Assembly (NCBI GenBank): GCA_045595385.1
Contig: JAZOAJ010000245.1
Coordinates: forward strand, 1-30,018
Length of the DNA stretch: 30,018 nt
Source: Lachnospiraceae bacterium
Lineage (GTDB): Bacteria; Bacillota; Clostridia; Lachnospirales; Lachnospiraceae
Reading direction: 5' to 3'
The notes under the pieces were generated by a model. The model saw only the letters and a program-made list of their open reading frames with translations. It searched no databases and was not told the DNA's origin. The position numbers and the translations under genes are program-made. Shown piece after piece: positions 1 to 14,406 of this stretch (position 1 is the stretch's first letter; every line of letters begins with the position of its first letter).

Positions 1-384
1 ACAAGATATTTCGGCGGTGTGCTGCTGGGTACAGGCGGACTTGTAAGGGCTTATACTGATTCTTCCATGGCAGCTGTCAACGCACTGCGCGGGAAAGAGG
101 GCGAAGGCAGGCTCCTTCCCGTCCTGAACGGACATGCCATAACATTCCGCTGCAGTTACAGTGACATCAGCCGGTTTGAGAGCCTCCAGGCCAAGCATGA
201 GATGCTCACCGTCTCAAAGGAATACCTTGATACCGCAGTCTATAACCTGATCATCGAGGATTCTAGACTGGAAGGATTTTTAAGCGATGCACGCAATGCT
301 ACCCGCGGCTCATTTGCCCTGGACGGGGATGAATCTGTGTCGTACTGTCCTGACGGGACCGGCGCACTGATATATAACTGGTGA
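1..384 (+). CDS. yigZ: YigZ/IMPACT family protein, C-terminal part (5' end outside window)
   Basis: Frame 1 is open from base 1 and reads TRYFGGVLLGTGGLVRAY, the YigZ signature. A DUF1949-like ferredoxin-fold C-terminal region follows. Confidence 0.85.
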   Translation, partial: TRYFGGVLLGTGGLVRAYTDSSMAAVNALRGKEGEGRLLPVLNGHAITFRCSYSDISRFESLQAKHEMLTVSKEYLDTAVYNLIIEDSRLEGFLSDARNATRGSFALDGDESVSYCPDGTGALIYNW

Positions 385-397
385 TCATTTATCCTAA

Positions 398-429
398 TAA
401 AAAACGAATGTGAACACGTTCACAGGCGT
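398..429 (-). terminator. Probable intrinsic terminator of the minus-strand operon
   Basis: Hairpin TGTGAA-cacg-TTCACA (409-424) with a possible ACG/CGT extension. An A-tract at 398-404 gives a U-tract on the minus strand, just past the stop at 448. Confidence 0.45.
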
Positions 430-447
430 CTTTATCGTTATTTCTCA

Positions 448-1815
448 TCAGCTTGTAATACCGTTGATTATCTGCTGTGCAACCTCTATATCCCAAAAAT
501 CGGGATATTTTTCAACAAGCTCCTGAAGATATGGAAGTGCATTCCTTGTATCGTCCAGATAGTCATATGACCTTCCAAGAAAATACAACAGATTGTCTGT
601 CACATAACCTTTGTCGTACAGATCCTGCAGCTGATTCTTTGCTTCCTCATATGACTCCGCACCATAGAGCTCGATCGCGGCATAGAGCTGGTCGGAATAT
701 TTCCTGTCAAGAGCTCCCTGTTTGAGCTGGTTATAGAACTCCTTCTGTTCAGGCTCAAGAACTTCCTCATTTACACCTTCAAGAGCTTCCAGCGCTCCAT
801 CAAAGTCTTCCTTGGAAAAAGCGATCTGGGCAGAAATAAGCTTTGAGAAACTGACATCTTCCTTATTTACGATCTCTTCGGTCTCGCCTTCCTCTGTCGT
901 CTCAGGGATCTCTTTCTGGAGCTGCTCTATCTTTGCGTTAAGATCTGATATCTGCGCCTGGTATTCGTTCCTGACAGTCTTGGTCTTGGCAGGAGTTACG
1001 ATAAAGAATATCAGCGCGGCACCGATTATCACTCCGATGATGATCTGGAGGACAGTCATGGTGGCGGGATTATACTCGCGGTAAGACGATTTGGGAATTA
1101 TGACATCATCTCCGCTTAAAGGTGAATGTTCCTCTGCTTCCGCCTTCTCCTGAAGACGTTTATTGCGCAGTTCAGTAGGTGAGAGTTCAGACTCGGCTTC
1201 CTTGATCTGCTCTTCCACAGCATTGGTATACGCTATGGTCGTGGTATTGCCCTGATCGATCATCCTTGCCTTGAACAGGACGTTCCTTGCCTCCGCGAAT
1301 TTCTTCTTTTTCATGAGGAGAAGTGCAAGGAGCTGATATCCCTTGACCATGTGGGTATTCTCATTGACGAGCTTCTTTAACTGTATCTCCGCAAGATCAT
1401 AGTTTTCCTGCTGAACATAGCTGAGCGCCTTGTTGTACTTGCGCACGGCATAATTGATCACATGCAGATACTGGCGGGAATTCTGGAGCTTATCCAGGAA
1501 ATGATCCGCCATGTTGTTCTCGCTCTGCTGGCTCTTACTTATGACCCACTGGGCAAGTCCCATCGCATATTCACCGATCTCGACATAGATCAGGCCGAGA
1601 AGATTTCGGGCGTTTATATTTGCCTTGTACATCTTCAGGCTGACCTTAAGACACTCGATCGCTCCGGTCATGTTGTGGTCCCTTGCCATTTCGAGTCCGC
1701 GGTTATACAGCTCGTTTGATTTTTTTACGATGCGTTTATATGTTGAAACGTCAGCTCCGCATTCAACGCAGTAGTCATTTTCATATAGAAAACTGCCGCA
1801 TTTATAACATTTCAT
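448..1815 (-). CDS. Membrane-anchored TPR protein with N-terminal zinc ribbon
   Basis: CYKC-x11-CVEC zinc ribbon, several TPR-like helical repeats, one hydrophobic helix (TVLQIIIGVIIGAALIFFIVTP), a coiled coil (YQAQISDLNAKIEQLQKE) and C-terminal TPRs (YFLGRSY..A..Y...LVEKYP). SD-like AGAGGG lies upstream. Confidence 0.8.
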   Translation of the reverse strand: MKCYKCGSFLYENDYCVECGADVSTYKRIVKKSNELYNRGLEMARDHNMTGAIECLKVSLKMYKANINARNLLGLIYVEIGEYAMGLAQWVISKSQQSENNMADHFLDKLQNSRQYLHVINYAVRKYNKALSYVQQENYDLAEIQLKKLVNENTHMVKGYQLLALLLMKKKKFAEARNVLFKARMIDQGNTTTIAYTNAVEEQIKEAESELSPTELRNKRLQEKAEAEEHSPLSGDDVIIPKSSYREYNPATMTVLQIIIGVIIGAALIFFIVTPAKTKTVRNEYQAQISDLNAKIEQLQKEIPETTEEGETEEIVNKEDVSFSKLISAQIAFSKEDFDGALEALEGVNEEVLEPEQKEFYNQLKQGALDRKYSDQLYAAIELYGAESYEEAKNQLQDLYDKGYVTDNLLYFLGRSYDYLDDTRNALPYLQELVEKYPDFWDIEVAQQIINGITS

Positions 1816-1826
1816 CGGCTGGCCCT

Positions 1827-1973
1827 CTATTTATCCTTCTTTTTTCCGTACAATACTTCCAGCATCAGATCGGTAAGATCCTCAACCGCATTCTCCGCCT
1901 TGGCGACCTTTTCCACATCGTCTATCTCAAGGCTCGGATGGAAATTTTTAATCTCTTCATCAAAATTGATCAT
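1827..1973 (-). CDS. 48-aa small acidic protein, absent from the ORF track
   Basis: Manual translation: MINFDEEIKNFHPSLEIDDVEKVAKAENAVEDLTDLMLEVLYGKKKDK*. The ATG is 2 nt after the valS stop, with SD GGAG upstream. It fills the valS-TPR gap and its stop leads into the SD of the TPR gene. Confidence 0.75.
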   Translation of the reverse strand: MINFDEEIKNFHPSLEIDDVEKVAKAENAVEDLTDLMLEVLYGKKKDK

Positions 1974-1975
1974 TA

Positions 1976-4642
1976 TTATTCTCCCGTACGCTCAAGCTTT
2001 TCCAGCTGAGAGAGCACCTGCTCCATCATCTTGGTGTACTTTTCTTTCTTTTCCTTTTCTTCAGCTATCTTTGCTTCAGGAGCCTTGCTTATGAATCTCT
2101 CATTTCCGAGCATTCCGTTTACCCTTGCGAGCTCGGCTTCAAGTTTCTTCTTTTCTCCCTGAAGTCTTTCGATCTCTTTGGAGATATCGACCAGTTCCTC
2201 AAGAGGAATGTATATTGTAACATCTGCCAATGAAACTGACAAGGCATCATCCTTAAGGCCGCTCCTGCTGTCCTGGATGGTGACATCTGTTGCCTTGGCC
2301 AGTGTCGCAAAGAACAGCTTGCCTTTTTCAAATATCGATCTTATGTGCTCTGACCCTGAGACCACATAAACTGCTGCCTTCTTAGCCAGAGGGACTCCCA
2401 GATTGGTACGTCCGTTCCTTATGCCTCTCACTGCTTCCTTGATGAGCTCGATCTCTTCCTCGGAATCAGCCTGGTCCCATTCGGGCTTGTATTCAGGCCA
2501 TGCGGAGATCATGATCGACTCTTCCGGATACTCTGCGCTCATCAGGGGCTGCATTGTGGTATAGATCTCTTCCGTTACGAAAGGCATGTACGGATGCAGG
2601 AGTTTGAGTGCGGTCACGAGTACAGTCTGGAGTGTCCAGAGGGCTGCATGCTTATCTGCTGCCTCCCGGGAATACAGACGCGGCTTGACCATCTCGATAT
2701 ACCAGTCACAGAACTCTTCCCAGATGAACTCATAGAGTTTGTCGGCTGCAAGACCGATCTCATATTTGTCCATGTTGGATGTGACTGCCTGCACGAGCTT
2801 GTTTGCCTTGGAAAGGATCCATTTGTCAGCATCTGTAAGCTCGGAAATGTCTACCGTGCCCACTCCCTCTTCAGGCATGTTCATCATGATGAACCTTGAA
2901 GCGTTCCAGATCTTGTTGGCGAAGTTCCTGCTCGCTTCCACTCTCTCATAATAGAAACGCATGTCATTTCCGGGAGTGTTGCCGGTCGCGAGTGTAAACC
3001 TGAGCGCGTCAGCGCCGTACTTGGCGATGACCTCGAGGGGATCGATGCCGTTTCCTAATGATTTGCTCATCTTCCTTCCGAGTTCATCCCTGACCAGACC
3101 GGTGAACAGTACAGCCTTGAACGGCTTCTCTCCCATCTGCTCATATCCTGAGAAGATCATCCTTATGACCCAGAAGAATATGATGTCATATCCGGTGATC
3201 AGAAGGTCTGTCGGATAGAAGTATCTGACATCCTCGTTGTCTTTCGGCCATCCGAGTGTGCTGAACGGCCAGAGCGCAGACGAGAACCAGGTATCAAGGC
3301 AGTCCTCATCCTGCGTAAAATGTGTGCATCCGCAGTCCGGGCATGCTTCGGGCATCTGCTTGGCCACGATCATCTTCCCGCACTTATCGCAGTAATATGC
3401 AGGGATCCTGTGTCCCCACCACAGCTGCCTTGAAATGCACCAGTCACGGATGTTGTCGGTCCAGTTATGATAGAGCTTTTCCATCCTCTTGGGGATCAGC
3501 TGGATCTCACCCTCGTCAACAGCCTTGATGGCAGGCTTGATCAGTTCGCTCATTGCCACGAACCACTGCTGCTTGATCATGGGTTCGATGATGGTAGAGC
3601 ATCTGTCATGATATCCAACAGCATGCTCATGGTCCACTACCTTAACAAGAAGGCCAAGCGCTTCAAGATCTTCCACGATCTTCTTTCTCGCATCCATGGT
3701 GGACATGCCGGCATATGCGCCGCCGAGCTCGTTTATGTAACCGTCATCGGTGAACACACAGATCTCTTCAAGGCCGTGCTTCTTGCCGAGTTCGAAGTCG
3801 TTGGGGTCATGGGCGGGCGTGACTTTCATCGCGCCGGTTCCCACCTCAAGATCGATATATTCATCAGCTATTATAGGCATCTCCCTGTTCATGAGCGGAA
3901 GTATGCATGTCTTGCCGATGAGATGCTGGTATCTGGGATCGTCCGGATGGACAACCACTGCTGTATCGCCAAGCATGGTCTCGGGCCTTGTTGTGGCGAT
4001 CTCGATCATCTCATCAGAATCCTTGATCGGATAATTGATATGCCAGAACTTGCCGGCGGTATCCTTGTGCTCTACTTCAGCGTCTGAAACTGAAGTCTGG
4101 CAGAACGGGCACCAGTTGATTATCTTGGTTCCCTTGTAAATGAGCCCTTTTTCATAGAGTTTTATGAACACTTCGAGCACTGCATCCGAGCAGCCCTCGT
4201 CCATTGTGAAACGCTCTCTGTCCCAGTCAGCTGAAGAGCCGAGTGTCTTAAGCTGGTTCACGATGCGTCCGCCGTATTCTTCCTTCCAGGCCCATGCTCT
4301 TTCAAGAAATTTCTCACGTCCCAGGTCTGCCTTGTCTATGCCCTCCTTCTTAAGGGCTTCGATTATCTTAACCTCAGTCGCTATTGATGCATGGTCACAT
4401 CCCGGCTGCCAGAGAGCCTCGTAGCCCTGCATCCTTTTCTGCCTGATGACAATGTCCTGAAGGGTATTGTTAAGAGCGTGTCCCATGTGAAGCTGTCCCG
4501 TGATATTCGGAGGCGGCATAACGATGGTAAACGGTTTCTTGTCAGGATTCGGTTCGGCATGGAAGTATTTCTTTTCCAGCCAGTTGTCGTAGATCTTCTG
4601 TTCAATCTCCTTCGGATCGTATGTCTTGGCTAATTCTTTCAT
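1976..4642 (-). CDS. valS: Valine--tRNA ligase
   Basis: PPPNITGQLHMGH (HIGH) and KMSKS motifs, ATTRPETMLGD editing region, RDWCISRQLWWGH, C-terminal coiled coil, SD AAGGAG. Confidence 0.98.
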   Translation of the reverse strand: MKELAKTYDPKEIEQKIYDNWLEKKYFHAEPNPDKKPFTIVMPPPNITGQLHMGHALNNTLQDIVIRQKRMQGYEALWQPGCDHASIATEVKIIEALKKEGIDKADLGREKFLERAWAWKEEYGGRIVNQLKTLGSSADWDRERFTMDEGCSDAVLEVFIKLYEKGLIYKGTKIINWCPFCQTSVSDAEVEHKDTAGKFWHINYPIKDSDEMIEIATTRPETMLGDTAVVVHPDDPRYQHLIGKTCILPLMNREMPIIADEYIDLEVGTGAMKVTPAHDPNDFELGKKHGLEEICVFTDDGYINELGGAYAGMSTMDARKKIVEDLEALGLLVKVVDHEHAVGYHDRCSTIIEPMIKQQWFVAMSELIKPAIKAVDEGEIQLIPKRMEKLYHNWTDNIRDWCISRQLWWGHRIPAYYCDKCGKMIVAKQMPEACPDCGCTHFTQDEDCLDTWFSSALWPFSTLGWPKDNEDVRYFYPTDLLITGYDIIFFWVIRMIFSGYEQMGEKPFKAVLFTGLVRDELGRKMSKSLGNGIDPLEVIAKYGADALRFTLATGNTPGNDMRFYYERVEASRNFANKIWNASRFIMMNMPEEGVGTVDISELTDADKWILSKANKLVQAVTSNMDKYEIGLAADKLYEFIWEEFCDWYIEMVKPRLYSREAADKHAALWTLQTVLVTALKLLHPYMPFVTEEIYTTMQPLMSAEYPEESIMISAWPEYKPEWDQADSEEEIELIKEAVRGIRNGRTNLGVPLAKKAAVYVVSGSEHIRSIFEKGKLFFATLAKATDVTIQDSRSGLKDDALSVSLADVTIYIPLEELVDISKEIERLQGEKKKLEAELARVNGMLGNERFISKAPEAKIAEEKEKKEKYTKMMEQVLSQLEKLERTGE

Positions 4643-4683
4643 TACAATATTGTCTCCTTATAAGTCCGGCTTTTTAAAGAAGC

Positions 4684-5487
4684 CTAACTTAACATAGTAT
4701 AATACTCATTCTTCCATTTGGCTATCTGTTTTTCAGGTCCGTCCTCTTCGTCCAGAGAGCTTTCAAATGCCAGGTATTCACTGCTGCTCTCTATCTGCGA
4801 ACGGGCCTTCTCGATATGCTCTTTTATAACGGCGAGAGCTTCGTCTGAAACCTTGTACTTAATGATGTTCCTGAGCAGCTCTTCCTCATCATTATTGATG
4901 ATGCTCATGTATACGCTTGCCTTGGCATACACCGGATCCTGGTACAGGTCATAGGCCATGCTGAAATACGTATTCGCGTTCCGGCACTTGAACATCTTCG
5001 CGTATACAACGCCTGCCGAAAAAGCTATGCGCGCGTAGAACATGTCGTTGGACGTATTTTCCGGATCTCTTGTGCTCAGTATGTCAAGATATATATGGAG
5101 CGCAGTGCCGTACCGCTTCTGCTTCATCATCGCACCCGCTTCGATCTGCATTCTCTCGTTTCTGGACAGGTTATTGATGTTCATCAGCAGATCTGCAACA
5201 GCGGCCAGATCGTCAGCTGAATAATAGCTGCTTGCCTTAAGGACATACATGATCATGTCCCTGCCGGAAGCATCATTCCGGTCAAGCATCCTAAGGCCCT
5301 GCGCCACCTGTTCCTCTCCCAGTTCTTTTTCAATGTAATCAAAGAGGCTGTCACAGAAGAACTCCCTGTATACCAGGTTCATGTGGTTATAGAGAAAATA
5401 GCTGATCTCCTCAAGGCTGTAAACATTTACGTCAACAGCCGCGATCCTGTAAGGTTTATCCGATTGTCTGGTGCACACCTGAAGCAT
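4684..5487 (-). CDS. Hypothetical helical/TPR-like protein
   Basis: 267-aa ORF whose ATG overlaps the upstream stop (TAATG). The central part is TPR-like (YGTALHIY...AFSAGVVYAKMFKCRNANTYFSMAY). Confidence 0.65.
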   Translation of the reverse strand: MLQVCTRQSDKPYRIAAVDVNVYSLEEISYFLYNHMNLVYREFFCDSLFDYIEKELGEEQVAQGLRMLDRNDASGRDMIMYVLKASSYYSADDLAAVADLLMNINNLSRNERMQIEAGAMMKQKRYGTALHIYLDILSTRDPENTSNDMFYARIAFSAGVVYAKMFKCRNANTYFSMAYDLYQDPVYAKASVYMSIINNDEEELLRNIIKYKVSDEALAVIKEHIEKARSQIESSSEYLAFESSLDEEDGPEKQIAKWKNEYYTMLS

Positions 5488-6761
5488 TAGATATATCCCT
5501 CCAGATCCAGCCGCCTGCTCACTTCTTTGCCGCTTCCTTCGAAGAAGCCTCCAAAGCCTTTATCCCTTATTATGAGGTCGCACTGGGAATCATTGACATA
5601 CCTGACCTCGACCTCCACTCTGGTGGCTTTGTCCTTTCTTGCAGGGAATGAAGATAGGTCCATTACAACCTCCGTCCTCTCCCTGCTTATGAGCGAGGTG
5701 ATGATGAATGTTACTTTAGGGTCATTTGTCACTATAAAATCAGTTACGCTGCCGGCATCATACCAGTCGCATGTTGCCCTTGACAGCTCTATCTCCCCGG
5801 GGACTCCGTTATCCAGAGCTTTAACGGCTATTGAAGCTTTGGTCCTGCCCTTGCATACGATCGGGTATTCCCTTCCGCCTTTAAATGCTCTTATGTAACC
5901 CGCAAGGCAGGCTCCCTTAACATACAGGTTATTGCCCTTGAATACCCTGAAGCTGCGGGAAATGTTCTGGAGCGTGTCCTCGAACCACAGTTCGGAGAAA
6001 CCTGTTCCTGTAAAGAAAACACTGCAGTTCTTTCCGTCGAACCTGATCTCTTCATAGATCTGGGAAAGCCTTTTGTCCAGCTGTCTTCTCAGCATCGCGC
6101 TTGCCAGATCCTTTATGAAGAATTCCATGGAATAAGTGCGCTCGTTAATGTATATGAGCGGTCTCTTAACTCCGCCGGTGAATGACATCTGCTTAGTGAA
6201 GAAACCGTCGGTATCAAAATCAAACAGGAGCGCGCCGTCCTTCCACAGGCTCTCGTCCTCGTTCAGCACAAAATAGGCAAAACTTTCGGCATAGCTTAAT
6301 ATCCTTACCTTTGAAGGGTCGACGCTTAAGATGTCGAAGACTCCTTCCATCCGCTCCTTGATCTCCATGTTCACCTTGCGCATGGTGATGGTTACATTTT
6401 CAACTGCCATGAGACCGGAGTGGATCTGTATCAGTTCAAGGAGCTTGCCCATGTATACCGCAAGCAGCATGTCGTATGTATAGCGTTTTCCGTCAACTAC
6501 GCATTCAGCTCCAACAAAGATGTTGTTATAAAGGTCTTTATAAAGGGTCACTCCTGTCTGCTCGGCATAGAGCATCGCCTCTTCGCCTATAAGCCATGTA
6601 TCGCTCTCTTTGTTGTAGCAAAGAGCTGCAGGTATCAGATAGCGCATGACTGAGCCCCCCGTCATCACTGATTCCGGGCGGCCATGGTGCAGGTTATAAT
6701 AACATGCCTGGCAGTATTCATTTGTAAGGTCAATGCCTATGATCAGCGGCTGTTTATCCAT
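5487..6761 (-). CDS. DUF5716-like protein with a divergent Hsp70/actin-like fold
   Basis: IIGIDL, IPAALCY..WLIGEEA, VTIT, LLFDFD, VFFTGTG and NLYVKGAC occur in the same order as the corresponding DnaK segments. The C-terminus resembles the DnaK substrate-binding beta domain. The DUF label is from recall. Confidence 0.7.
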   Translation of the reverse strand: MDKQPLIIGIDLTNEYCQACYYNLHHGRPESVMTGGSVMRYLIPAALCYNKESDTWLIGEEAMLYAEQTGVTLYKDLYNNIFVGAECVVDGKRYTYDMLLAVYMGKLLELIQIHSGLMAVENVTITMRKVNMEIKERMEGVFDILSVDPSKVRILSYAESFAYFVLNEDESLWKDGALLFDFDTDGFFTKQMSFTGGVKRPLIYINERTYSMEFFIKDLASAMLRRQLDKRLSQIYEEIRFDGKNCSVFFTGTGFSELWFEDTLQNISRSFRVFKGNNLYVKGACLAGYIRAFKGGREYPIVCKGRTKASIAVKALDNGVPGEIELSRATCDWYDAGSVTDFIVTNDPKVTFIITSLISRERTEVVMDLSSFPARKDKATRVEVEVRYVNDSQCDLIIRDKGFGGFFEGSGKEVSRRLDLEGYI

Positions 6762-6773
6762 TCCTGTGCCATC

Positions 6774-9700
6774 CTAAAAGAGCCTGTCCATGAGCATGGA
6801 TTCTTTCTGGTAATCCCTGATCTGTTCCTTCAGCTGTGCTTCATCAGTTCCGTGAAGCTTTCTTATCATGGCATCCAGCTGTGAAAATCTGGAGCCGTCG
6901 TCTATCGTATGCAGGTCGTTGTAAGTAATGATGCAGCTTTTTCCTTTATCAATGGAATATTCCACGCTCTCTGCAAAGAACAGTGTGAAATTCCTGGTAT
7001 ATATCCCGGGGACGATCTCCTTCATTGCTTCCTGTCCCCTGACAGAACCGCTCCTCTGCTTCAGTTCAAATGTTATGACTGGAGCCGGTCTGAACATGGT
7101 GCTCTTTGTCAGCTGTTCATTTCCGTTACCGTCCTGTGTACTGCCTATCTTTTCAGCGACATAAGTATTTGCCAATGAAGCAGGGATCTCAAAATACTTC
7201 CTGTATTCCTTGAACTCCTCAAGCATTATCCCCCTTCTGACAAGATCGTTGATCAGTTCTCCTGCGATCTTTATGCTCCTCTTATCAGGGGCACTCTTTA
7301 GACGCAGATACATGAGATACGCGACCGATACCGTGTCATTAAACTTCTCTCCTGAGGCGAAAGCGCTTTCAGCATATTTAAAGATATATTCTGTCTTTTT
7401 GTCTGTGCCGAAAAGATGCTCCGCTGCAGCTGCTGATATGAAATCCTTCTTAAGGTCTGCGTCGGAGCCGTTTGCGAAATAATCCGCAAATATCCCCTCA
7501 GTCTCCTTCGGGAATTCACTGAGGGCAGCAGATTTCCTGATCACCCTTTCAGCGACCGTAATGTCATCAACGCCGTTAGCCTTGGCGGCTATGTACATGA
7601 GGATCAGGACGTCAAGCCTGTCATCATAGCGCCTGCACATGTATTTGAATATAACGGGATCAAAAGCGCAGTTCAGGAATGCCCTACATGAAAGCGCTTC
7701 CAGTACCCCATCCTCTTCATAATCGGTTATCTGGGCAAGAAAATGGGCGAGCGATGCGGCATGCTCATCAGAGATGTCCTCAGACCCGTTCTTTTTTATC
7801 TCCTCGTAGGCTTCTTTGTACATCATCTTGTCGATCATGACTTCAGTAAGCCTTGCCCTTGTACTCTCTTCAAGGTTGTAATCCAGGAACTTGAGCAGAA
7901 GATCATCAACAGTCCTGTCATCACGTGTTTTGCTGTACTGGACTATCAGACGCCTTAAAATGTCCTGCTCATAGCTTCCCCTCAGCCTTCCCTTGCCGAG
8001 GTATGCCTGGAAATATCTCAGTATGTCTGCAGGGTCTTTATCATCATGCACGATCTCAAGATTGTCTCCCACGAGCATGTATCTGGTTAGTGAAGACATG
8101 TCAATGCATTTAGAGGCATATTCCTTCCGTGGCATGAACCGTTTGGAGTAATGGTCGATATTGCTGTACAGATTTCCTGTTATGTCCTTGAACAGAATGA
8201 CTGCATCGCCGGTAAATATCCTGACGAGGGCTTTCCCTTCCTTCAGCTCTGTTTCCTGGTATTCGCTGAACTCCCTGTGAAATACAAGTACGCTCGAGAT
8301 CAGGGGATTATCAGTAGATATCTCCCTCGTATGGAGGATCTCAAGCATACGGGCATACCTGTCTTTTGCGAGCTGGTCGCTGTCCATCAGTTCTCTGTAT
8401 ATAACAGCGAGTGATGTGCTCACATTTCCCTTGTCGAGTGCTTCATATGCGGACCTGATCATGTTGTTCAGGGCAATGTCATAGTACTTCTTGTATTCAT
8501 CTTTTCTTTTTACGATGCAGGCAAAATAGTAATCCCTGCTGCAGCCAAGCTCATACTCCCTGCCGGCAAAGAACTCAAGCACGGTTTCAGGTATCTCTAT
8601 GAATTTTTCCGTGCCTGCCGAATAGATGAAATAGTCATACAGGCCTTTAATGTCAAGGAACCCGTTTACTGCCTCTTTGTAATATGAGTGATATTCCGGA
8701 CCTTTCTTTTCGGCACAGATCAGTACTTTGCACAGGGATTTCAGGATTATGCTGCTCTTAAACTTGTCGTATGCATCTTTCAGGATCTTTATGCACGCAT
8801 CAAGATTGGAATACTGCAGCACGCGGTTGTCGGTATGCCAGATGACCTCGGCAAACTTTGCCGCCACGCTTATGCTGAGGAAGTCCTCCCTGGCTGCAAA
8901 ATACAGGGTATGTATCACAAATTTGGAAGGTTCGGTAATGAGCTCGGGATCGTCTTTAAAGGCTTCCATCGCCTCGTAATACATGACCGGGCTGTTGCAT
9001 CCCCTGATCAGGAACTCCCCTTCGATCATCTCGGCAATGTCTTTCGGCGAGCCTGACAGCTTTTCGTCCAAATAAAGCAGCACCCAGAGTATTTTCCATC
9101 CCGGGTGCATCTCATAGATGGTCCTGACCCGGCCTGCCATGTCCCTGGTCACTTCATCATCCATCTCATATAGACTTCCGATATAGTAGTAATAAGCAAG
9201 AAGGTCCCAGTTGCGCTCATTGAGCTTTCTCATCTGGGCGGATACAAATTCCATGAGGCTTTCCGCCTCTTCATACCGTTCGCACGATATGAGGACATTT
9301 GCTTTATAGAGCATGAGGAACATGTCGGCGACATTTCCCCCGTTAACTTCATTAAGTATGGTAAGCGTTTTATCCTGCCATTCCGTCTGGAAAAGGTTTC
9401 CGAGGCGGAGGTCTATGTAGGACCTCTCAAGCAGGGCTATCTTCCTTCGGCTGCTGGTCTGGGCAAATCCCACACGCAGGCTGTTGTCAACTATGACGTT
9501 CACGCTGGAGCTGCATACAGGATTCCTGAAGGTTATGCGCGCATAATTCTTTCCGTTGTGGAGTTTTTCAGCGATCACGTTGAAGGAGAACTCAAGCACC
9601 GAGTCTTTGAATTCTTCCGTGGTCACGACTTTTTTGTCAAAGCTGATCGCAGGATCTTCAGAATATGCCTCGATCTCGGCATATCCGGGAGCAGTGATCT

Positions 9701-9869
9701 TAAGATGGATGATACCGGTAGTATCATTCACCACATCAGAGAATCTTATGTTCTTTTCCTGTGCCTCAAACCGGACCTGTTCCTTGTCGCCGATCGCAGT
9801 GAGGTATTCCTCCCTGGCAACCTTTTTGTTCCGTCCGAGCATCAGGGCATCATAGATAAGATCGTTCAC
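6774..9869 (-). CDS. DUF5717-like large protein (N-terminal beta/Ig-like region, then long helical/TPR-like repeats)
   Basis: 1031-aa ORF. The GTG start overlaps the rarA TGA (GTGA), with SD AGGA upstream. Beta-rich first ~130 aa, then Tyr/Leu-rich helical repeats. Family assignment is from recall and from adjacency to the DUF5716-like gene. Confidence 0.6.
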   Translation of the reverse strand: MNDLIYDALMLGRNKKVAREEYLTAIGDKEQVRFEAQEKNIRFSDVVNDTTGIIHLKITAPGYAEIEAYSEDPAISFDKKVVTTEEFKDSVLEFSFNVIAEKLHNGKNYARITFRNPVCSSSVNVIVDNSLRVGFAQTSSRRKIALLERSYIDLRLGNLFQTEWQDKTLTILNEVNGGNVADMFLMLYKANVLISCERYEEAESLMEFVSAQMRKLNERNWDLLAYYYYIGSLYEMDDEVTRDMAGRVRTIYEMHPGWKILWVLLYLDEKLSGSPKDIAEMIEGEFLIRGCNSPVMYYEAMEAFKDDPELITEPSKFVIHTLYFAAREDFLSISVAAKFAEVIWHTDNRVLQYSNLDACIKILKDAYDKFKSSIILKSLCKVLICAEKKGPEYHSYYKEAVNGFLDIKGLYDYFIYSAGTEKFIEIPETVLEFFAGREYELGCSRDYYFACIVKRKDEYKKYYDIALNNMIRSAYEALDKGNVSTSLAVIYRELMDSDQLAKDRYARMLEILHTREISTDNPLISSVLVFHREFSEYQETELKEGKALVRIFTGDAVILFKDITGNLYSNIDHYSKRFMPRKEYASKCIDMSSLTRYMLVGDNLEIVHDDKDPADILRYFQAYLGKGRLRGSYEQDILRRLIVQYSKTRDDRTVDDLLLKFLDYNLEESTRARLTEVMIDKMMYKEAYEEIKKNGSEDISDEHAASLAHFLAQITDYEEDGVLEALSCRAFLNCAFDPVIFKYMCRRYDDRLDVLILMYIAAKANGVDDITVAERVIRKSAALSEFPKETEGIFADYFANGSDADLKKDFISAAAAEHLFGTDKKTEYIFKYAESAFASGEKFNDTVSVAYLMYLRLKSAPDKRSIKIAGELINDLVRRGIMLEEFKEYRKYFEIPASLANTYVAEKIGSTQDGNGNEQLTKSTMFRPAPVITFELKQRSGSVRGQEAMKEIVPGIYTRNFTLFFAESVEYSIDKGKSCIITYNDLHTIDDGSRFSQLDAMIRKLHGTDEAQLKEQIRDYQKESMLMDRLF

Positions 9870-11194
9870 TCTTTTTTCCTGTTTCTCAGCCGTTCCAGGC
9901 GTTCCTTCATCGTCTTTTCATAGCCCAGGTCTCCGGGTTCATAGAACTTCCTTCCTACCAGTTCATCCGGAAGGTACTGCTGTTCCACGTAATGTTCCGG
10001 GAAGAGATGGGCATATTTATAACCTACTCCGCGGCCGAGCGCTTCATGCCCGCTGTAATGGGCGTCCTGCAGATGCGCCGGCACACTCTTTATGTCTACT
10101 GTCTTTACTGCTTCAAGCGCTTCATCGATGGCATTTATCGCTGCATTGCTCTTAGGGGCGCACGCTATATATATAGCGGCCTGGGCCAAAGGTATGCGCG
10201 CCTCGGGAAGGCCAAGCACATGCACTGCCTGCTGTGCGGCAACCGCCACCTGCAGCGCCCTGGGGTCCGCATTTCCAACGTCCTCCGCCGCACAGATCAT
10301 TATCCTTCTCGCGATGAAGTTGACATCTTCTCCCGCATAGATCATGCGTGCGAGATAATAAACAGCGGCATCCGGATCGGATCCCCTCATGCTCTTTATG
10401 AAAGCGGAGATCACATCGTAGTGGTTATCTCCGTCCTTGTCATATCTGACGTTCTTTTTCTGGATACACTGAGAGATGATCTCGGTCGTCAGATGTATCT
10501 TTCCGTCCTTTGACGGAGCCGTTGTAAGAACTGCCAGCTCGATCGCGTTCAGCGCGACTCTGGCATCTCCGCCGGCGAAATCCGCAAGGAACTCCAACGC
10601 GTCCGGATCTATCTCCGCTTTGAAGGCGCCCATGCCCCTCTCCCTGTCGTTCAGGGCGGTTATGATGATGTCCTTTATGTCCTCCCTGTCAAGAGGATGG
10701 AGCTCATAGATCAGCGATCTGGAGATAAGAGCCCTGTTCACTTCAAAGTAAGGATTCTCAGTCGTGGCTCCTATAAGGATTATGGTCCCGTCCTCGACAA
10801 ACGGCAGCAGATAGTCCTGCTGTGCCTTGTTGAACCGATGTATCTCGTCAATGAACAGTATGGTCTTGCGCCCGTATGCGCCGGAGATCATCTTTGCATT
10901 CTCAACGACCTCGACCATGTCCTTTTTACCGGCGACTGTCGCGTTCAGCTGCTTGAATTCAGCTGATGTAGTATTGGCTATAACGCGGGCGAGCGTCGTC
11001 TTGCCTGTTCCCGACGGTCCGAAGAATATTACTGAAGAAAGCCTGTCTGCCCGGATCGACCTGTACAACTGGCTCCCTTCGGCCAGTATATGTTTCTGGC
11101 CTTTGATCTCGTCCAGTGTGCGCGGCCTGATCCGGTATGCCAGAGGGGCCTCCTGCTTTAATTTATTGTTGTGCGCATATTCAAAAAGATCCAT
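9866..11194 (-). CDS. rarA: Replication-associated recombination protein A (AAA+ ATPase)
   Basis: PLAYRIRP, Walker A GPSGTGKT, Walker B LFIDEIHRFNKAQQD, GATTENP, SAFIKSMRGSDPDAA, AAEDVGNADP. Confidence 0.96.
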   Translation of the reverse strand: MDLFEYAHNNKLKQEAPLAYRIRPRTLDEIKGQKHILAEGSQLYRSIRADRLSSVIFFGPSGTGKTTLARVIANTTSAEFKQLNATVAGKKDMVEVVENAKMISGAYGRKTILFIDEIHRFNKAQQDYLLPFVEDGTIILIGATTENPYFEVNRALISRSLIYELHPLDREDIKDIIITALNDRERGMGAFKAEIDPDALEFLADFAGGDARVALNAIELAVLTTAPSKDGKIHLTTEIISQCIQKKNVRYDKDGDNHYDVISAFIKSMRGSDPDAAVYYLARMIYAGEDVNFIARRIMICAAEDVGNADPRALQVAVAAQQAVHVLGLPEARIPLAQAAIYIACAPKSNAAINAIDEALEAVKTVDIKSVPAHLQDAHYSGHEALGRGVGYKYAHLFPEHYVEQQYLPDELVGRKFYEPGDLGYEKTMKERLERLRNRKKE

Positions 11195-12571
11195 TTATCT
11201 CTTCTTGATCGGTACGTAAACAGCGTGCCTTACCACGTTCTTGTATGCAGGTCTTATGAGTTTGGTGCCTGTTGTGATCTCTTCAAGTCTGTGGGCTCCC
11301 CAGCCTGCCATCCTGGAGACAGCAAATATCGGTGTGAACAGCTCATGGGGAAGTCCGAGCAGCCTGTATACAAATCCGGAATAGAAGTCGACGTTAGCGC
11401 ATATGTTCGCCCTGTTCATCTTCTTCTTTGTCGCAATTACGTCAGTACCTATCTGCTCAACCTTTTTGTAGAACTCATACTCTTCCAGGCATCCTTTTTC
11501 CGCGGCCAGTTTCTCAACAAACTGGCTGAGTATGACTGCCCTCGGATCGGATATCGTATATACTGCATGTCCCATTCCATAAATGAGTCCGCTCCTGTCA
11601 AAACTCTTTCCGGCGATTATCCTCTCCAGCTGTTTCCTGATCTCATTTTCATCATCCCAGTGTCTGATCTTTGACTTAAGGAATGCCATCATTTCATCAA
11701 CTTTGATGTTGGCTCCGCCGTGACGGGGTCCCTTAAGGGATGCTAAGGCTGCTGCCGTTGTGGAGTATGTATCTGTCATTGTCGAAGTAACAACTCTTGT
11801 AGTAAATGCAGAATTATTACCGCCGCCGTGATCGGCATGGAGGACAAGGCACAGATCCAGTATCCTGGCCTCGGTCTTTGTATAGGCGCTATCGGGTCTT
11901 AGCAGATGAAGTATCGTCTCCGCGGTTGAAAGTCCGCTCTTGGGCTGGTGGATGAACAGGGACTGTCCCTCCTTGTAGTGCTCAAATGCCTGGTATCCGT
12001 AAACGGCAAGCATGGGCATGACGGCATAGAGGGCGAGACACTGTCTGAGTACGTTCTCAACCGCTGTGCTGTCAGGATTGTCATCATATGCATAGAGTGT
12101 GAGCACACTCCTCATGAGAGTGTTCATCATGTCTTTGCTTGGGGCTTTCATGATGATGTCCCTTACAAAATTCGTAGGGAGCTGTCTGTATGATTCAACT
12201 GTCTCGTCGAATTTCTTAAGTTCATCCTTATTCGGAAGTTTTCCGAACATGAGAAGATATGTCGTCTCCTCGAAACCGAACCGTTTCTCCTTTGAAAAAC
12301 CTTTTACGAGGTCTTCAATGTTGTATCCCCTGTAATAAAGCTTGCCGGGGCACGGCACCATCTCGTCGTCATCTATGGTGTATGACTTTACTTCTGCTAT
12401 TTCTGTAAGTCCTGTGAGAACACCTTTTCCGTTCTCATCACGAAGACCTCTCTTAACATTGTACCTGTAATAGAGAGAAGGATCTATGACATCGTTTTCT
12501 TTGCAGATCCTTGCAAGTTCTTCTATTTCCGGTGTGTTCTCTGAAAATGGATTTACGCTCTTGTTACTCAT
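11195..12571 (-). CDS. gltA: Citrate synthase
   Basis: Catalytic motifs LHADHGGGNNSAF, GPRHGGAN, GMGHAVY..SDPR and NVDFYSG, plus GKLYYRGY. Confidence 0.93.
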   Translation of the reverse strand: MSNKSVNPFSENTPEIEELARICKENDVIDPSLYYRYNVKRGLRDENGKGVLTGLTEIAEVKSYTIDDDEMVPCPGKLYYRGYNIEDLVKGFSKEKRFGFEETTYLLMFGKLPNKDELKKFDETVESYRQLPTNFVRDIIMKAPSKDMMNTLMRSVLTLYAYDDNPDSTAVENVLRQCLALYAVMPMLAVYGYQAFEHYKEGQSLFIHQPKSGLSTAETILHLLRPDSAYTKTEARILDLCLVLHADHGGGNNSAFTTRVVTSTMTDTYSTTAAALASLKGPRHGGANIKVDEMMAFLKSKIRHWDDENEIRKQLERIIAGKSFDRSGLIYGMGHAVYTISDPRAVILSQFVEKLAAEKGCLEEYEFYKKVEQIGTDVIATKKKMNRANICANVDFYSGFVYRLLGLPHELFTPIFAVSRMAGWGAHRLEEITTGTKLIRPAYKNVVRHAVYVPIKKR

Positions 12572-12617
12572 ATGTTCCCCTTTTTGTGTATACTGCGCCT
12601 AGCATAATTAATTGTTA

Positions 12618-12646
12618 ATTATAGCACCAATAAAAAACCCCCGCAA
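12618..12646 (-). promoter_or_regulatory. Sigma-A promoter of the citrate synthase operon
   Basis: TTGCGG (12646-12641), 17-nt spacer, then TGc-TATAAT (12623-12618), an extended -10. Confidence 0.75.
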
Positions 12647-12659
12647 TAAAATCATAATC

Positions 12660-12688
12660 TTGAATAATGATTTGGCTTAAGATAAAAT
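12660..12688 (+). promoter_or_regulatory. Sigma-A promoter of the divergent membrane-protein gene
   Basis: TTGAAT (12660-12665), 17 nt, TAAAAT (12683-12688). The predicted +1 falls at about the ATG at 12695. Confidence 0.6.
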
Positions 12689-12694
12689 GTCCTC

Positions 12695-13087
12695 ATGATG
12701 TTCAGGAACACTTTAAAGAATATATTCAGCATTCTGCTGCTGATCTCAGGGATCGTGAGCGGCGCAATGATCTTTTTTGTTACCAGATCGCGCCTTTCGG
12801 CCGTGGCAAATTCCCATAAGATGATGCTCGCGGCAGATGTCCTGATGTTTATATATGCGCTTATCTATATAGTTTGCGGCCTTCTTGCCCTTTCAAGGAG
12901 CATACCGCGCAAGGTAGTGCGCGTAAGACCGTTTGTGCAGGTCGGGGTTTTTCTGGCAATAGCCTCTCTGATAATATCACTTGCCAACGGGATCTTAGTA
13001 AGTCACATCATCATCCTTGCGGTATGCGGTATCCTGATACCCCAGATCTTTTTCTTTATCATAGGTGCGATAATGGCGAGAAAATGA
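12695..13087 (+). CDS. Small integral membrane protein (about 4 TM helices), function unknown
   Basis: 130 aa with four hydrophobic segments separated by basic loops. It fills the gap between two minus-strand operons. Confidence 0.7.
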   Translation: MMFRNTLKNIFSILLLISGIVSGAMIFFVTRSRLSAVANSHKMMLAADVLMFIYALIYIVCGLLALSRSIPRKVVRVRPFVQVGVFLAIASLIISLANGILVSHIIILAVCGILIPQIFFFIIGAIMARK

Positions 13088-13104
13088 TTCCCGCCATTTT
13101 ATTT

Positions 13105-14406
13105 TCATTTATTCTGCTTTAACCTTTCAAGTTCTTCGAAGAATTGCGGATATGTCCGTTCAACGGCATCGGCCTGCTCCAGGATCACCCCTTTCCGGCA
13201 CATGCCTGCGGCCATTGTTCCCATCATGGCGAGCCGGTAATCACTGTGAGTTCCTACCCGTCCGCCGAAAAGCAGTTTTCCTCCGCTGCCGTCGATCAGG
13301 AGTCCGTCAGGCACCTCCGTTATCTGGGCTCCGAGTTCAGTCATCACCGCCGTAAGGGCCCTGACTCTGTCAGCGTCCATTCCGATACTGACAGGGTTTT
13401 TGATTATGCTCACTCCCTCCGCAGCGCTTGCCAGCAGCACAACGTGTGTCAGCAGGTCAGGGATGTCGGAAGCATCGATGTTCGTTCCCTTGAGATTTCC
13501 TCCGCTTACGGTTATGTCAGACCAGAATACAGGTTCTCCTTCTTCCCATGTATCAGTCTGCTCATGTTTTTTCTCTTCGGTTTTTGCGCCGAACAGTTCG
13601 AGTATCCTGAGGATCCGCCTGTCGCCCTGATGCGATGCTGTGTTCAGATCAGTGCATGTGACCGTACCGCCGCTGACAGCCGCTCCGGTCAGCCAGTACG
13701 CTGCCAGTTCCCAGTCGCCTTCTGTCGCAGGGATTTCCTTCATGTCGTACCGCTGGCCTCCGGGTATCCTGTAAACCCTGGCCAGGCCGTTCTGGTCCTT
13801 GAGCACCTCAATGCTGATGCCTGCCCTGCGCATCATGCTGATCGTCATGTCAACATACATCTCGGACTGGGGTTTCTTTTCCACCATGACAGCACTCTTC
13901 TCCTTGAGGAGCGGAAGGGCCATCAATAGTCCTGAAAGCGCCTGCCCGTCTGATACTCCCGGGAATATGTATGTTCCTGCGGTCAGCTGCCCCGTAACTT
14001 TAACAAGATCAGGCCTGATCTCATCCCTTTTGATCCCGTGAGTACGCAGAACACGGTAAAACTGGTCCATCGATGTAAATACCAGATTGCCCCTCAGGGC
14101 ATAGATGCAGGTTTTTCCGAACGCGCCTGCTATCGGGAGCATGAACTTGTATGTTGTATCACTTTCCCCGCATTCAAGCCTGTATACGAAATTCTCGTCC
14201 GAAACAGTTTCTTCTCCAAGCCCCAGAACACCCAGGCAGTTCCTGGTCACCTTGATGTCCTTTGAATCGTTTTTAAATTCAAATGCGGCCTCATTTCCTG
14301 AAAGGGCGCTGCATATCAGATATCTGTGAAGGAGCGATCCTGCCTGAGGGACTTTGATCGTTCCGTTTATGGGTTCATTTGATATTATCCTGGTGATCAG
14401 TCCCAC
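13105..14406 (-). CDS. AroA (EPSP synthase)-fold protein with a degenerate active site
   Basis: AroA scaffold motifs are present in order (CGES.TT, EGDW..AAYWL, QGD, DIPDL, DxR.AM, V.rTYP.FF), but many catalytic residues are substituted. GTG start with SD GAGGT. Confidence 0.8.
   Translation of the reverse strand: MGLITRIISNEPINGTIKVPQAGSLLHRYLICSALSGNEAAFEFKNDSKDIKVTRNCLGVLGLGEETVSDENFVYRLECGESDTTYKFMLPIAGAFGKTCIYALRGNLVFTSMDQFYRVLRTHGIKRDEIRPDLVKVTGQLTAGTYIFPGVSDGQALSGLLMALPLLKEKSAVMVEKKPQSEMYVDMTISMMRRAGISIEVLKDQNGLARVYRIPGGQRYDMKEIPATEGDWELAAYWLTGAAVSGGTVTCTDLNTASHQGDRRILRILELFGAKTEEKKHEQTDTWEEGEPVFWSDITVSGGNLKGTNIDASDIPDLLTHVVLLASAAEGVSIIKNPVSIGMDADRVRALTAVMTELGAQITEVPDGLLIDGSGGKLLFGGRVGTHSDYRLAMMGTMAAGMCRKGVILEQADAVERTYPQFFEELERLKQNK

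Follow-up and report, generated by a model that had tools for sequence, protein, structure and literature searches.

Introduction

No ATP-driven chaperones are better studied than the Hsp70s, and examples of dead Hsp70s used as structural subunits come chiefly from eukaryotes (Ssz1). Here we examine a bacterial protein family, DUF5716, through its member in a Lachnospiraceae bacterium. The DNA analyzed (GCA_045595385.1, contig JAZOAJ010000245.1, positions 1 to 30,018 of the forward strand), a stretch of 30,018 nt referred to below as the window, encodes the 424-aa DUF5716 product (P0001) between the genes for a 267-aa tetratricopeptide repeat (TPR) protein (P0228) and a 1031-aa DUF5717 protein (P0229). 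An initial annotation, made from the sequence alone, had described P0001 as a stripped-down Hsp70, probably devoid of ATPase activity, that might act as a scaffold or substrate holder dedicated to its neighbors.

Ssz1, from the yeast ribosome-associated complex (PDB entries 5mb9, 6sr6, 4gni, and 7x3k), resembles DUF5716 in combining an Hsp70 nucleotide-binding domain (NBD) with a truncated substrate-binding domain (SBD) that has no working lid, and it is among the top structural matches of the family (Z 21 to 22.7). It is a stable, noncycling subunit, the SBD of which binds a segment of its partner as a pseudo-substrate (title of 6sr6). Unlike DUF5716, Ssz1 binds ATP-Mg (title of 4gni) and keeps subdomain IIB of the NBD. 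The partners differ as well, that of Ssz1 being a J-domain protein on the ribosome, whereas the putative partner of DUF5716 is a TPR protein in which no J domain was detected. The two proteins have independent origins, DUF5716 descending from a bacterial cluster paralogue, termed B below. A second eukaryotic parallel is provided by Hsp110/Sse1 (2qxl, 3c7n, and 3d2e; Z 21 to 22.6), a noncycling and permanently docked Hsp70 relative, as DUF5716 would be, which, in contrast to DUF5716, binds ATP and exchanges the nucleotide of Hsp70 by means of a long lid and insertions.

Among bacterial proteins, DnaK and the PF00012 family share with DUF5716 a collinear arrangement of NBD, linker, and the beta-sandwich part of the SBD (SBD-beta), and DUF5716 is nested within the Hsp70 tree. 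DnaK differs in being motif complete and in having subdomain IIB, the lid, and the tail, while the DUF5716 operon includes neither a GrpE nor a DnaJ gene. Paralogue B of sister families is the nearest relative and likewise has DUF5717 upstream and a TPR gene and valS downstream; unlike DUF5716, it is flanked by a GrpE-domain protein and by motif-complete Hsp70s, two or three in number, of which one is fused to a von Willebrand factor A (vWA) domain.

Gene clusters of Firmicutes and Actinobacteria have been described that encode an Hsp70, GrpE, an extra Hsp70 without the peptide-binding domain, and repeat proteins fused to TPR or DnaJ (Kaur, Burroughs, Iyer, and Aravind 2020; PMC7159879). A GAP1-N2 GTPase forms the center of those clusters, which have a patchy distribution, whereas DUF5716 keeps its SBD-beta and is distributed like a core gene. 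We considered whether the locus belongs to these GTPase-centered HSP70/GrpE conflict systems and rejected this identification, there being no GTPase here or in the sister clusters examined, in addition to the core-gene distribution.

Results

The DUF5716 gene occupies positions 5487 to 6761 on the minus strand as an intact open reading frame (ORF), from an ATG at 6761 to a TAA at 5487 to 5489. The plus-strand translation of this interval contains many stops, and in independent metagenome contigs from sheep gut the gene is free of insertions and deletions. The Pfam profile PF18980 (DUF5716_C) matches residues 123 to 419 of P0001 at 241.4 bits against a gathering cutoff of 34.7 (E 1.4e-71). The Pfam HSP70 profile (PF00012) found nothing in P0001 even at E < 10, and when the whole genome was scanned with this profile, the DUF5716 gene was not among the matches. 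Neither NCBIfam nor a phmmer search of the PDB gave a match to P0001, and a hidden Markov model (HMM) of the DUF5716 family reached DnaK in the PDB only at E 1.1. Because ordinary searches miss the relationship, the Hsp70 kinship of DUF5716 needs profile-profile or structural comparison.

Comparing a profile of 209 DUF5716 sequences with one of 29 DnaK sequences, hhalign matched P0001 residues 7 to 406 to DnaK residues 4 to 474 (96.9%, E 1.3e-10), bearing out the collinearity with DnaK that had been read from the sequence. A smaller profile of 34 homologues, set against the window genome's own DnaK, aligned residues 5 to 171 with a probability of 81%. The eight peptide strings on which the initial annotation was based are all present in the P0001 translation, and seven of its eight motif pairs align as named; the eighth, VRILSYAES with VKRIINEPT, does not hold a fixed register, which varies by 1 to 4 residues between methods.

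The AlphaFold2 (AF2) model of P0001 (predicted local distance difference test [pLDDT] 91, predicted template modeling score [pTM] 0.87) agrees with the profile alignment. The top 50 Foldseek matches in the PDB are all Hsp70s (DnaK, BiP, Hsc70, Ssb, and Sse1), with E values from 1e-20 to 1e-15. In VIA-align, model residues 4 to 303 superpose on the NBD of DnaK (7rax, Z 22.9), and residues 5 to 420 superpose on DnaK residues 2 to 503, which comprise the NBD, the linker, and SBD-beta (Z 22.6); this structural comparison, which the initial annotation had proposed, thus matches both domains at Z 22 to 23. The best superposition is on docked-state DnaK (7kru, root mean square deviation [rmsd] 6.5 Å over 387 residues), whereas undocked ADP-state entries superpose at an rmsd of 18 to 20 Å. 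At the level of the predicted structure, DUF5716 is thereby confirmed as an Hsp70-fold protein with an actin-like NBD, a hydrophobic linker, and SBD-beta.

On the DNA, the remnant of the NBD (residues 1 to 303) extends over positions 5853 to 6761 of the minus strand; from VIA-align and the residue map, it comprises subdomains IA, IB, and IIA, with IIB represented by a helical hairpin only. The hydrophobic linker Y299-P-I-V-C303 and the SBD-beta sandwich (residues 304 to 424, aligned with DnaK residues 394 to 503), which is not followed by a lid, are assigned to positions 5490 to 5852 of the same strand by VIA-align, hhalign, and conservation. Within SBD-beta, R375, R381, and the D400-x-G-F-G404 loop are invariant in the family. 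The C-terminal LEGYI was considered as a TPR-docking peptide in the style of EEVD; it is seen in close relatives, is not conserved across the 209 sequences, and was dropped.

Mapping the functional residues of DnaK onto the 209 family sequences revealed how much of the nucleotide machinery has been lost. At the first phosphate loop, D8 of DnaK is retained as D11 (D in 192 sequences, E in 16), while G10-T11-T12-N13 is replaced by variable T/S/G, D/N/E, E/D/K, and Y. K70 has become hydrophobic (L/I/Y/V), and the catalytic E171 has become Q/L/I, with no alignment register placing a Glu opposite it. At the second phosphate loop, D194 corresponds to D181 (D in 162, E in 24), and G196-G197-G198-T199 is replaced by S/D/T, a variable residue, D/E, and G, while D201 is F/K/Y. 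The GG of the adenosine motif corresponds to G252 (209 of 209), a variable residue, and G254 (185 of 209), and the adenine-side (adenine-stacking) Arg is variable. In P0001, the motifs read D11-L-T-N-E-Y for DLGTTN, Y78 for K70, L155 for E171, D181-F-D-T-D-G for DLGGGT, and G252-T-G254 for GGS. The replacement of GTT, E171, and GGGT, noted initially for the one protein, therefore holds for the family, with K70 lost in addition; the phosphate-contacting and catalytic positions are gone throughout, partly replaced by acids. This family-wide loss supports the suggestion that the protein is ATPase dead: judged from these residues, DUF5716 very probably has no ATPase activity and is not expected to bind ATP.

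Two further elements are missing. The span from the phosphate-2 motif to the adenosine motif is 70 to 74 residues in DUF5716 versus 143 in DnaK, indicating that about 72 residues, roughly subdomain IIB, have been deleted. Past loop L6,7 of SBD-beta, DUF5716 has 17 to 22 residues versus 123 in DnaK and therefore no lid; consistently, DSSP assigns no lid helices in the AF2 model. The motif span and the C-terminal length thus bear out the shortened IIB and absent lid first proposed for P0001.

At 50% identity, the family falls into 859 clusters. Of 201 genus representatives of the Lachnospiraceae, 198 have a PF18980 match, mostly a single one; the 397 genomes sampled from the other families of the phylum had none. 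At least 85% conservation is seen at 29 positions of the 209-sequence family. No PADLOC model matched any of the four proteins tested. A distribution of this kind marks a lineage-specific core gene rather than a mobile or defense gene. Within the library searched, no relevant paper on DUF5716, DUF5717, or their Pfam accessions was retrieved.

The origin of the family can be traced in sister families of the same order, many of which have DUF5717_N, split there into ORFs of about 400 and 900 aa. Eight of nine fetched sister-family loci show the same multi-Hsp70 cluster, in the order DUF5717a, DUF5717b, Hsp70-A (about 559 aa), an approximately 630-aa protein that ends in a GrpE domain, Hsp70-B (about 523 aa), Hsp70-C (about 545 aa), Hsp70-D with a fused vWA domain, and a TPR protein. 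The N-terminal half of this TPR protein matches the 267-aa protein of the window (E 3e-9), and in one genome (G731) valS directly follows the cluster. Paralogue B matches both PF18980 (2e-33) and PF00012 (1.8e-14), is scored by the DUF5716 HMM at 155 to 196 bits, and corresponds to an ESM Atlas cluster named "DUF5716/Hsp70." This multi-Hsp70/GrpE/vWA cluster appears to be undescribed.

In a maximum-likelihood tree rooted on DnaK, the topology is (D, A, (C, (B, DUF5716))), with support of 100 at the key nodes: DUF5716 forms one clade (100) that joins B (100), and that pair joins C (100). The stem branch of DUF5716 is long, at 1.8 changes per site. No ATPase motif is missing from paralogues A, C, and D, and the motif loss is therefore specific to the B/DUF5716 lineage. 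Paralogue B already lacks K70, E171, and GGGT and shares with DUF5716 a shifted Glu near the former catalytic position, while it retains G10, a GGGF motif, and a full-length IIB (126 to 152 residues between the motifs). All four paralogues are lidless; IIB is missing in DUF5716 only. DUF5716 is thus the Lachnospiraceae orthologue of paralogue B, further reduced, and its lidlessness and motif loss were inherited from the cluster paralogue and did not arise in the DUF5716 gene itself.

We next consider the neighbors of DUF5716 in the window and in 13 loci of other genera, in which the identity of DUF5716 is only 22 to 30%. DUF5717 is directly upstream of DUF5716 in all 13, a homologue of the 267-aa TPR gene follows in 12, the exception being L051, where none was detected, and valS comes next in 6. 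In these loci, the Lachnospiraceae operon has neither the active Hsp70s A, C, and D nor the GrpE-domain gene. The gene for P0228 (4684 to 5487, minus strand) is translationally coupled to DUF5716, the stop of which overlaps its start in TAATG, with a GGAGGG Shine-Dalgarno sequence 9 nt before the start. P0228 is described as TPR-like from its TPR cluster matches in the ESM Atlas, from synteny, and from its homology to fused C-terminal extensions. On the other side of DUF5716, the gene for the putative scaffold P0229 (6774 to 9869, minus strand; PF18984 at E 2.9e-147 and PF18983 at E 1.3e-39) ends 12 nt before the DUF5716 ATG.

DUF5716 and its TPR neighbor also occur as natural fusions: five database members measure 703 to 727 aa, a further fusion is a 709-aa ORF in genomic sequence (L048), and P0228 is homologous to the C-terminal extension of the 703- to 727-aa members (E 6e-25 and 2e-17). 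Queried with the C-terminal half of one fused protein (P0104), a word-index search returned P0104 itself only. The fusions are strong evidence that DUF5716 and the 267-aa TPR protein act together, from which a physical complex of the two may be expected. Together with the gene order kept in 12 of 13 loci and the TAATG overlap, they support the proposed dedication of P0001 to its neighbors. A phmmer search of the PDB with the 267-aa and DUF5717 proteins gave no match, the ESM Atlas contained no DUF5717 model, and a Pfam scan of the 267-aa, 1031-aa, and 455-aa neighbors (the last encoded past valS) detected no DnaJ domain.

A possible mode of interaction emerged when the natural 709-aa fusion was folded with AF2 from an alignment spanning both halves (pLDDT 92.9, pTM 0.84). 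Past SBD-beta, the model has short strands at residues 435 to 438, 448 to 450, and 455 to 457, followed by an all-helical repeat domain; the first of these strands has the sequence RLIL. With this model, the VIA-align range widens from residues 5 to 420 on DnaK 2 to 503 to residues 7 to 438 on DnaK 2 to 550, on 7kru, 7krv, and 7kzu, which according to their entry titles are truncated DnaK chains with a C-terminally fused substrate peptide. The DnaK609::NR construct was designed to place its fused NRLLLTG peptide in the SBD site (PMC7968864). Going by the titles, the three entries presumably follow this design, in which case the residues near 550 would lie in the peptide.

The free 267-aa homologues of 12 genera start with M(G)xLILC plus basic residues, and the TPR protein of the sister families also has the LILC-plus-basic motif. 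DnaK classically binds a hydrophobic core flanked by basic residues, and the equivalents of the DnaK groove-floor residues (I401, V436, and I438) stay hydrophobic in DUF5716. In the window, P0228 starts with MLQVCTR, and this heptad (5467 to 5487, minus strand) is, from motif conservation and the fusion model, a candidate pseudo-substrate strand for the SBD-beta groove. The model suggests that the SBD-beta of DUF5716 may hold the N terminus of its TPR partner as a pseudo-substrate, similarly to Ssz1 and Zuo1. It thereby lends indirect support to the "substrate holder" of the initial annotation, every computationally testable part of which was borne out.

Several further observations were made in the window and the compared loci. 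Past valS, a 48-aa ORF (1827 to 1973) and a 455-aa TPR protein (448 to 1815), together spanning positions 448 to 1973 of the minus strand, recur in the same order in L040 and L045; from this recurrence and the TPR matches, they might belong to the system as well, with valS in between. In L047 (genome G533, 8559 to 10466, minus strand), a DUF5716 of 636 aa is prolonged by some 200 additional residues at its C terminus and is followed by a separate 278-aa TPR gene, a third architecture besides the split and fused forms. Upstream of DUF5717 in the window, the genes for citrate synthase and rarA/mgsA (9866 to 12571, minus strand) abut the DUF5717 start, with a stop/start overlap of GTGA, so that the GTG start of P0229 overlaps the rarA stop. 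The DUF5717_N profile matches P0229 only from position 163, whereas most Lachnospiraceae DUF5717 proteins are about 1200 aa long and cover the profile from position 1 or 2; the lineage of the window is without the first domain of about 160 aa. No rarA was found upstream of DUF5717 in the 13 other loci, and the rarA-DUF5717 junction is therefore lineage specific. A promoter and terminator scan of positions 1 to 13200 yielded sites no more numerous than those in shuffled sequence and did not delimit the operon ends. In addition to a canonical DnaK, the window genome has a second canonical-looking Hsp70 that runs off a contig end (G000:C243:3-155, L003), of which the first 50 residues are present (E 1e-21).

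Discussion

Our data are probably best explained by DUF5716 being a noncycling, docked Hsp70 shell that clamps the TPR protein encoded downstream and works with the DUF5717 scaffold. DUF5716 is an Hsp70 paralogue in which the actin-like NBD core, the interdomain linker, and the beta-sandwich substrate domain are kept; IIB, the lid helices, and all residues for contacting the ATP phosphates or hydrolyzing ATP are gone. In this scenario, the protein would most likely not cycle and would instead serve as a structural subunit in the form of a fixed docked shell, with a beta domain that permanently grips the TPR partner, encoded downstream, by its hydrophobic N-terminal strand, as that of Ssz1 does with Zuo1. 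The pair would work with the 1031-aa DUF5717 scaffold encoded upstream. The specific proposal of a bacterial counterpart to Ssz1-Zuo1, wherein a dead, lidless Hsp70 without IIB clamps the LILC strand of the TPR protein and forms with DUF5717 a family-specific core machine that arose by the stripping of an eight-gene multi-Hsp70/GrpE/vWA system to its nonenzymatic parts, is plausible, and we advance it tentatively.

Several observations weigh against this interpretation. The former active-site region keeps D11 (D or E in 208 of 209 sequences), D181 (D or E in 186 of 209), and G252-x-G254, and E159 (window positions about 6285 to 6287), a Glu in 183 of 209 sequences, is located 2 to 4 residues past the E171 position. 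The evidence for the clamp consists of one AF2 model of a homologous fusion and the first and last aligned residues reported by VIA-align, from which the contact of strand and groove would follow, and the LQVC motif of the window is less hydrophobic than the consensus LILC. Gene order is the one line of evidence that points to a possible interaction of DUF5716 with DUF5717. Furthermore, RNA-labeled runs provided only sparse short contigs that are possibly DNA derived.

The retained acids open the way for a different hypothesis, according to which DUF5716 is a working nucleotide- or metal-dependent switch, with D11, D181, and E159 binding a metal and G252-x-G254 binding a ligand, and cycles like an unusual Hsp70. 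These residues are among the best conserved in the 209 sequences, and E159 is also kept in paralogue B of the sister families (RECI versus AESF), which implies long-term selection. Nevertheless, both phosphate loops are without their glycines and have variable Asp or Glu instead, K70 is hydrophobic, and the Arg on the adenine side varies; the deleted IIB is the subdomain that provides one half of the nucleotide cleft as well as the site where GrpE docks, and the Lachnospiraceae operon lacks the GrpE-domain gene found in the ancestral cluster. We therefore regard such a switch as unlikely. It is quite unlikely, too, that DUF5716 is a regulator of the housekeeping DnaK, acting as an exchange factor or cochaperone of the Hsp110 or Ssz1 type instead of being purely structural. 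The presence of Sse1/Hsp110 and Ssz1 among the best structural matches, the canonical DnaK of the window genome, and the position of sister-family B among three active Hsp70s and a GrpE-domain protein would all fit such a role, but Hsp110 exchange activity needs ATP binding plus an intact IIB and lid surface, and the ATP-binding residues, IIB, and the lid surface are all missing in DUF5716. Moreover, the Lachnospiraceae kept B while losing its active partners A, C, and D, and the role of B is therefore independent of them.

Two other explanations are already contradicted by the data. The actin-fold core, along with secondary MreB_Mbl Pfam matches of the sister-cluster paralogues, might suggest a filament former of the MreB, ParM, or FtsA type that is not derived from Hsp70; given the Hsp70-type SBD-beta at residues 304 to 424, the restriction of the top 50 structural matches to Hsp70s, and a tree that nests DUF5716 inside the Hsp70 paralogues, we consider this very improbable. 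A stem branch of 1.8 changes per site and the loss of all catalytic motifs might be expected of a decaying, functionless relic, an idea to which we give next to no credence in light of an intact single copy in 198 of 201 genera, the 29 positions conserved to at least 85%, synteny kept at 22 to 30% identity, and intact genes in the sheep-gut metagenome contigs.

Returning to the docked, noncycling shell, what is new here is the residue-level map of the family, the measured extent of the IIB deletion, the tree of the paralogues, the common valS synteny, and the pseudo-substrate prediction. Taken together, they describe a bacterial lineage that has discarded the nucleotide machinery, IIB, and the lid of an Hsp70 while retaining the beta substrate domain and, as modeled, the docked architecture, with intermediate steps of this reduction still visible in sister families. 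DUF5716 is a near-universal single-copy marker of the Lachnospiraceae, a family dominant in the human and ruminant gut microbiota. If the clamp proves true, the substrate groove of an Hsp70 would have been turned into a permanent protein-protein joint in these bacteria.

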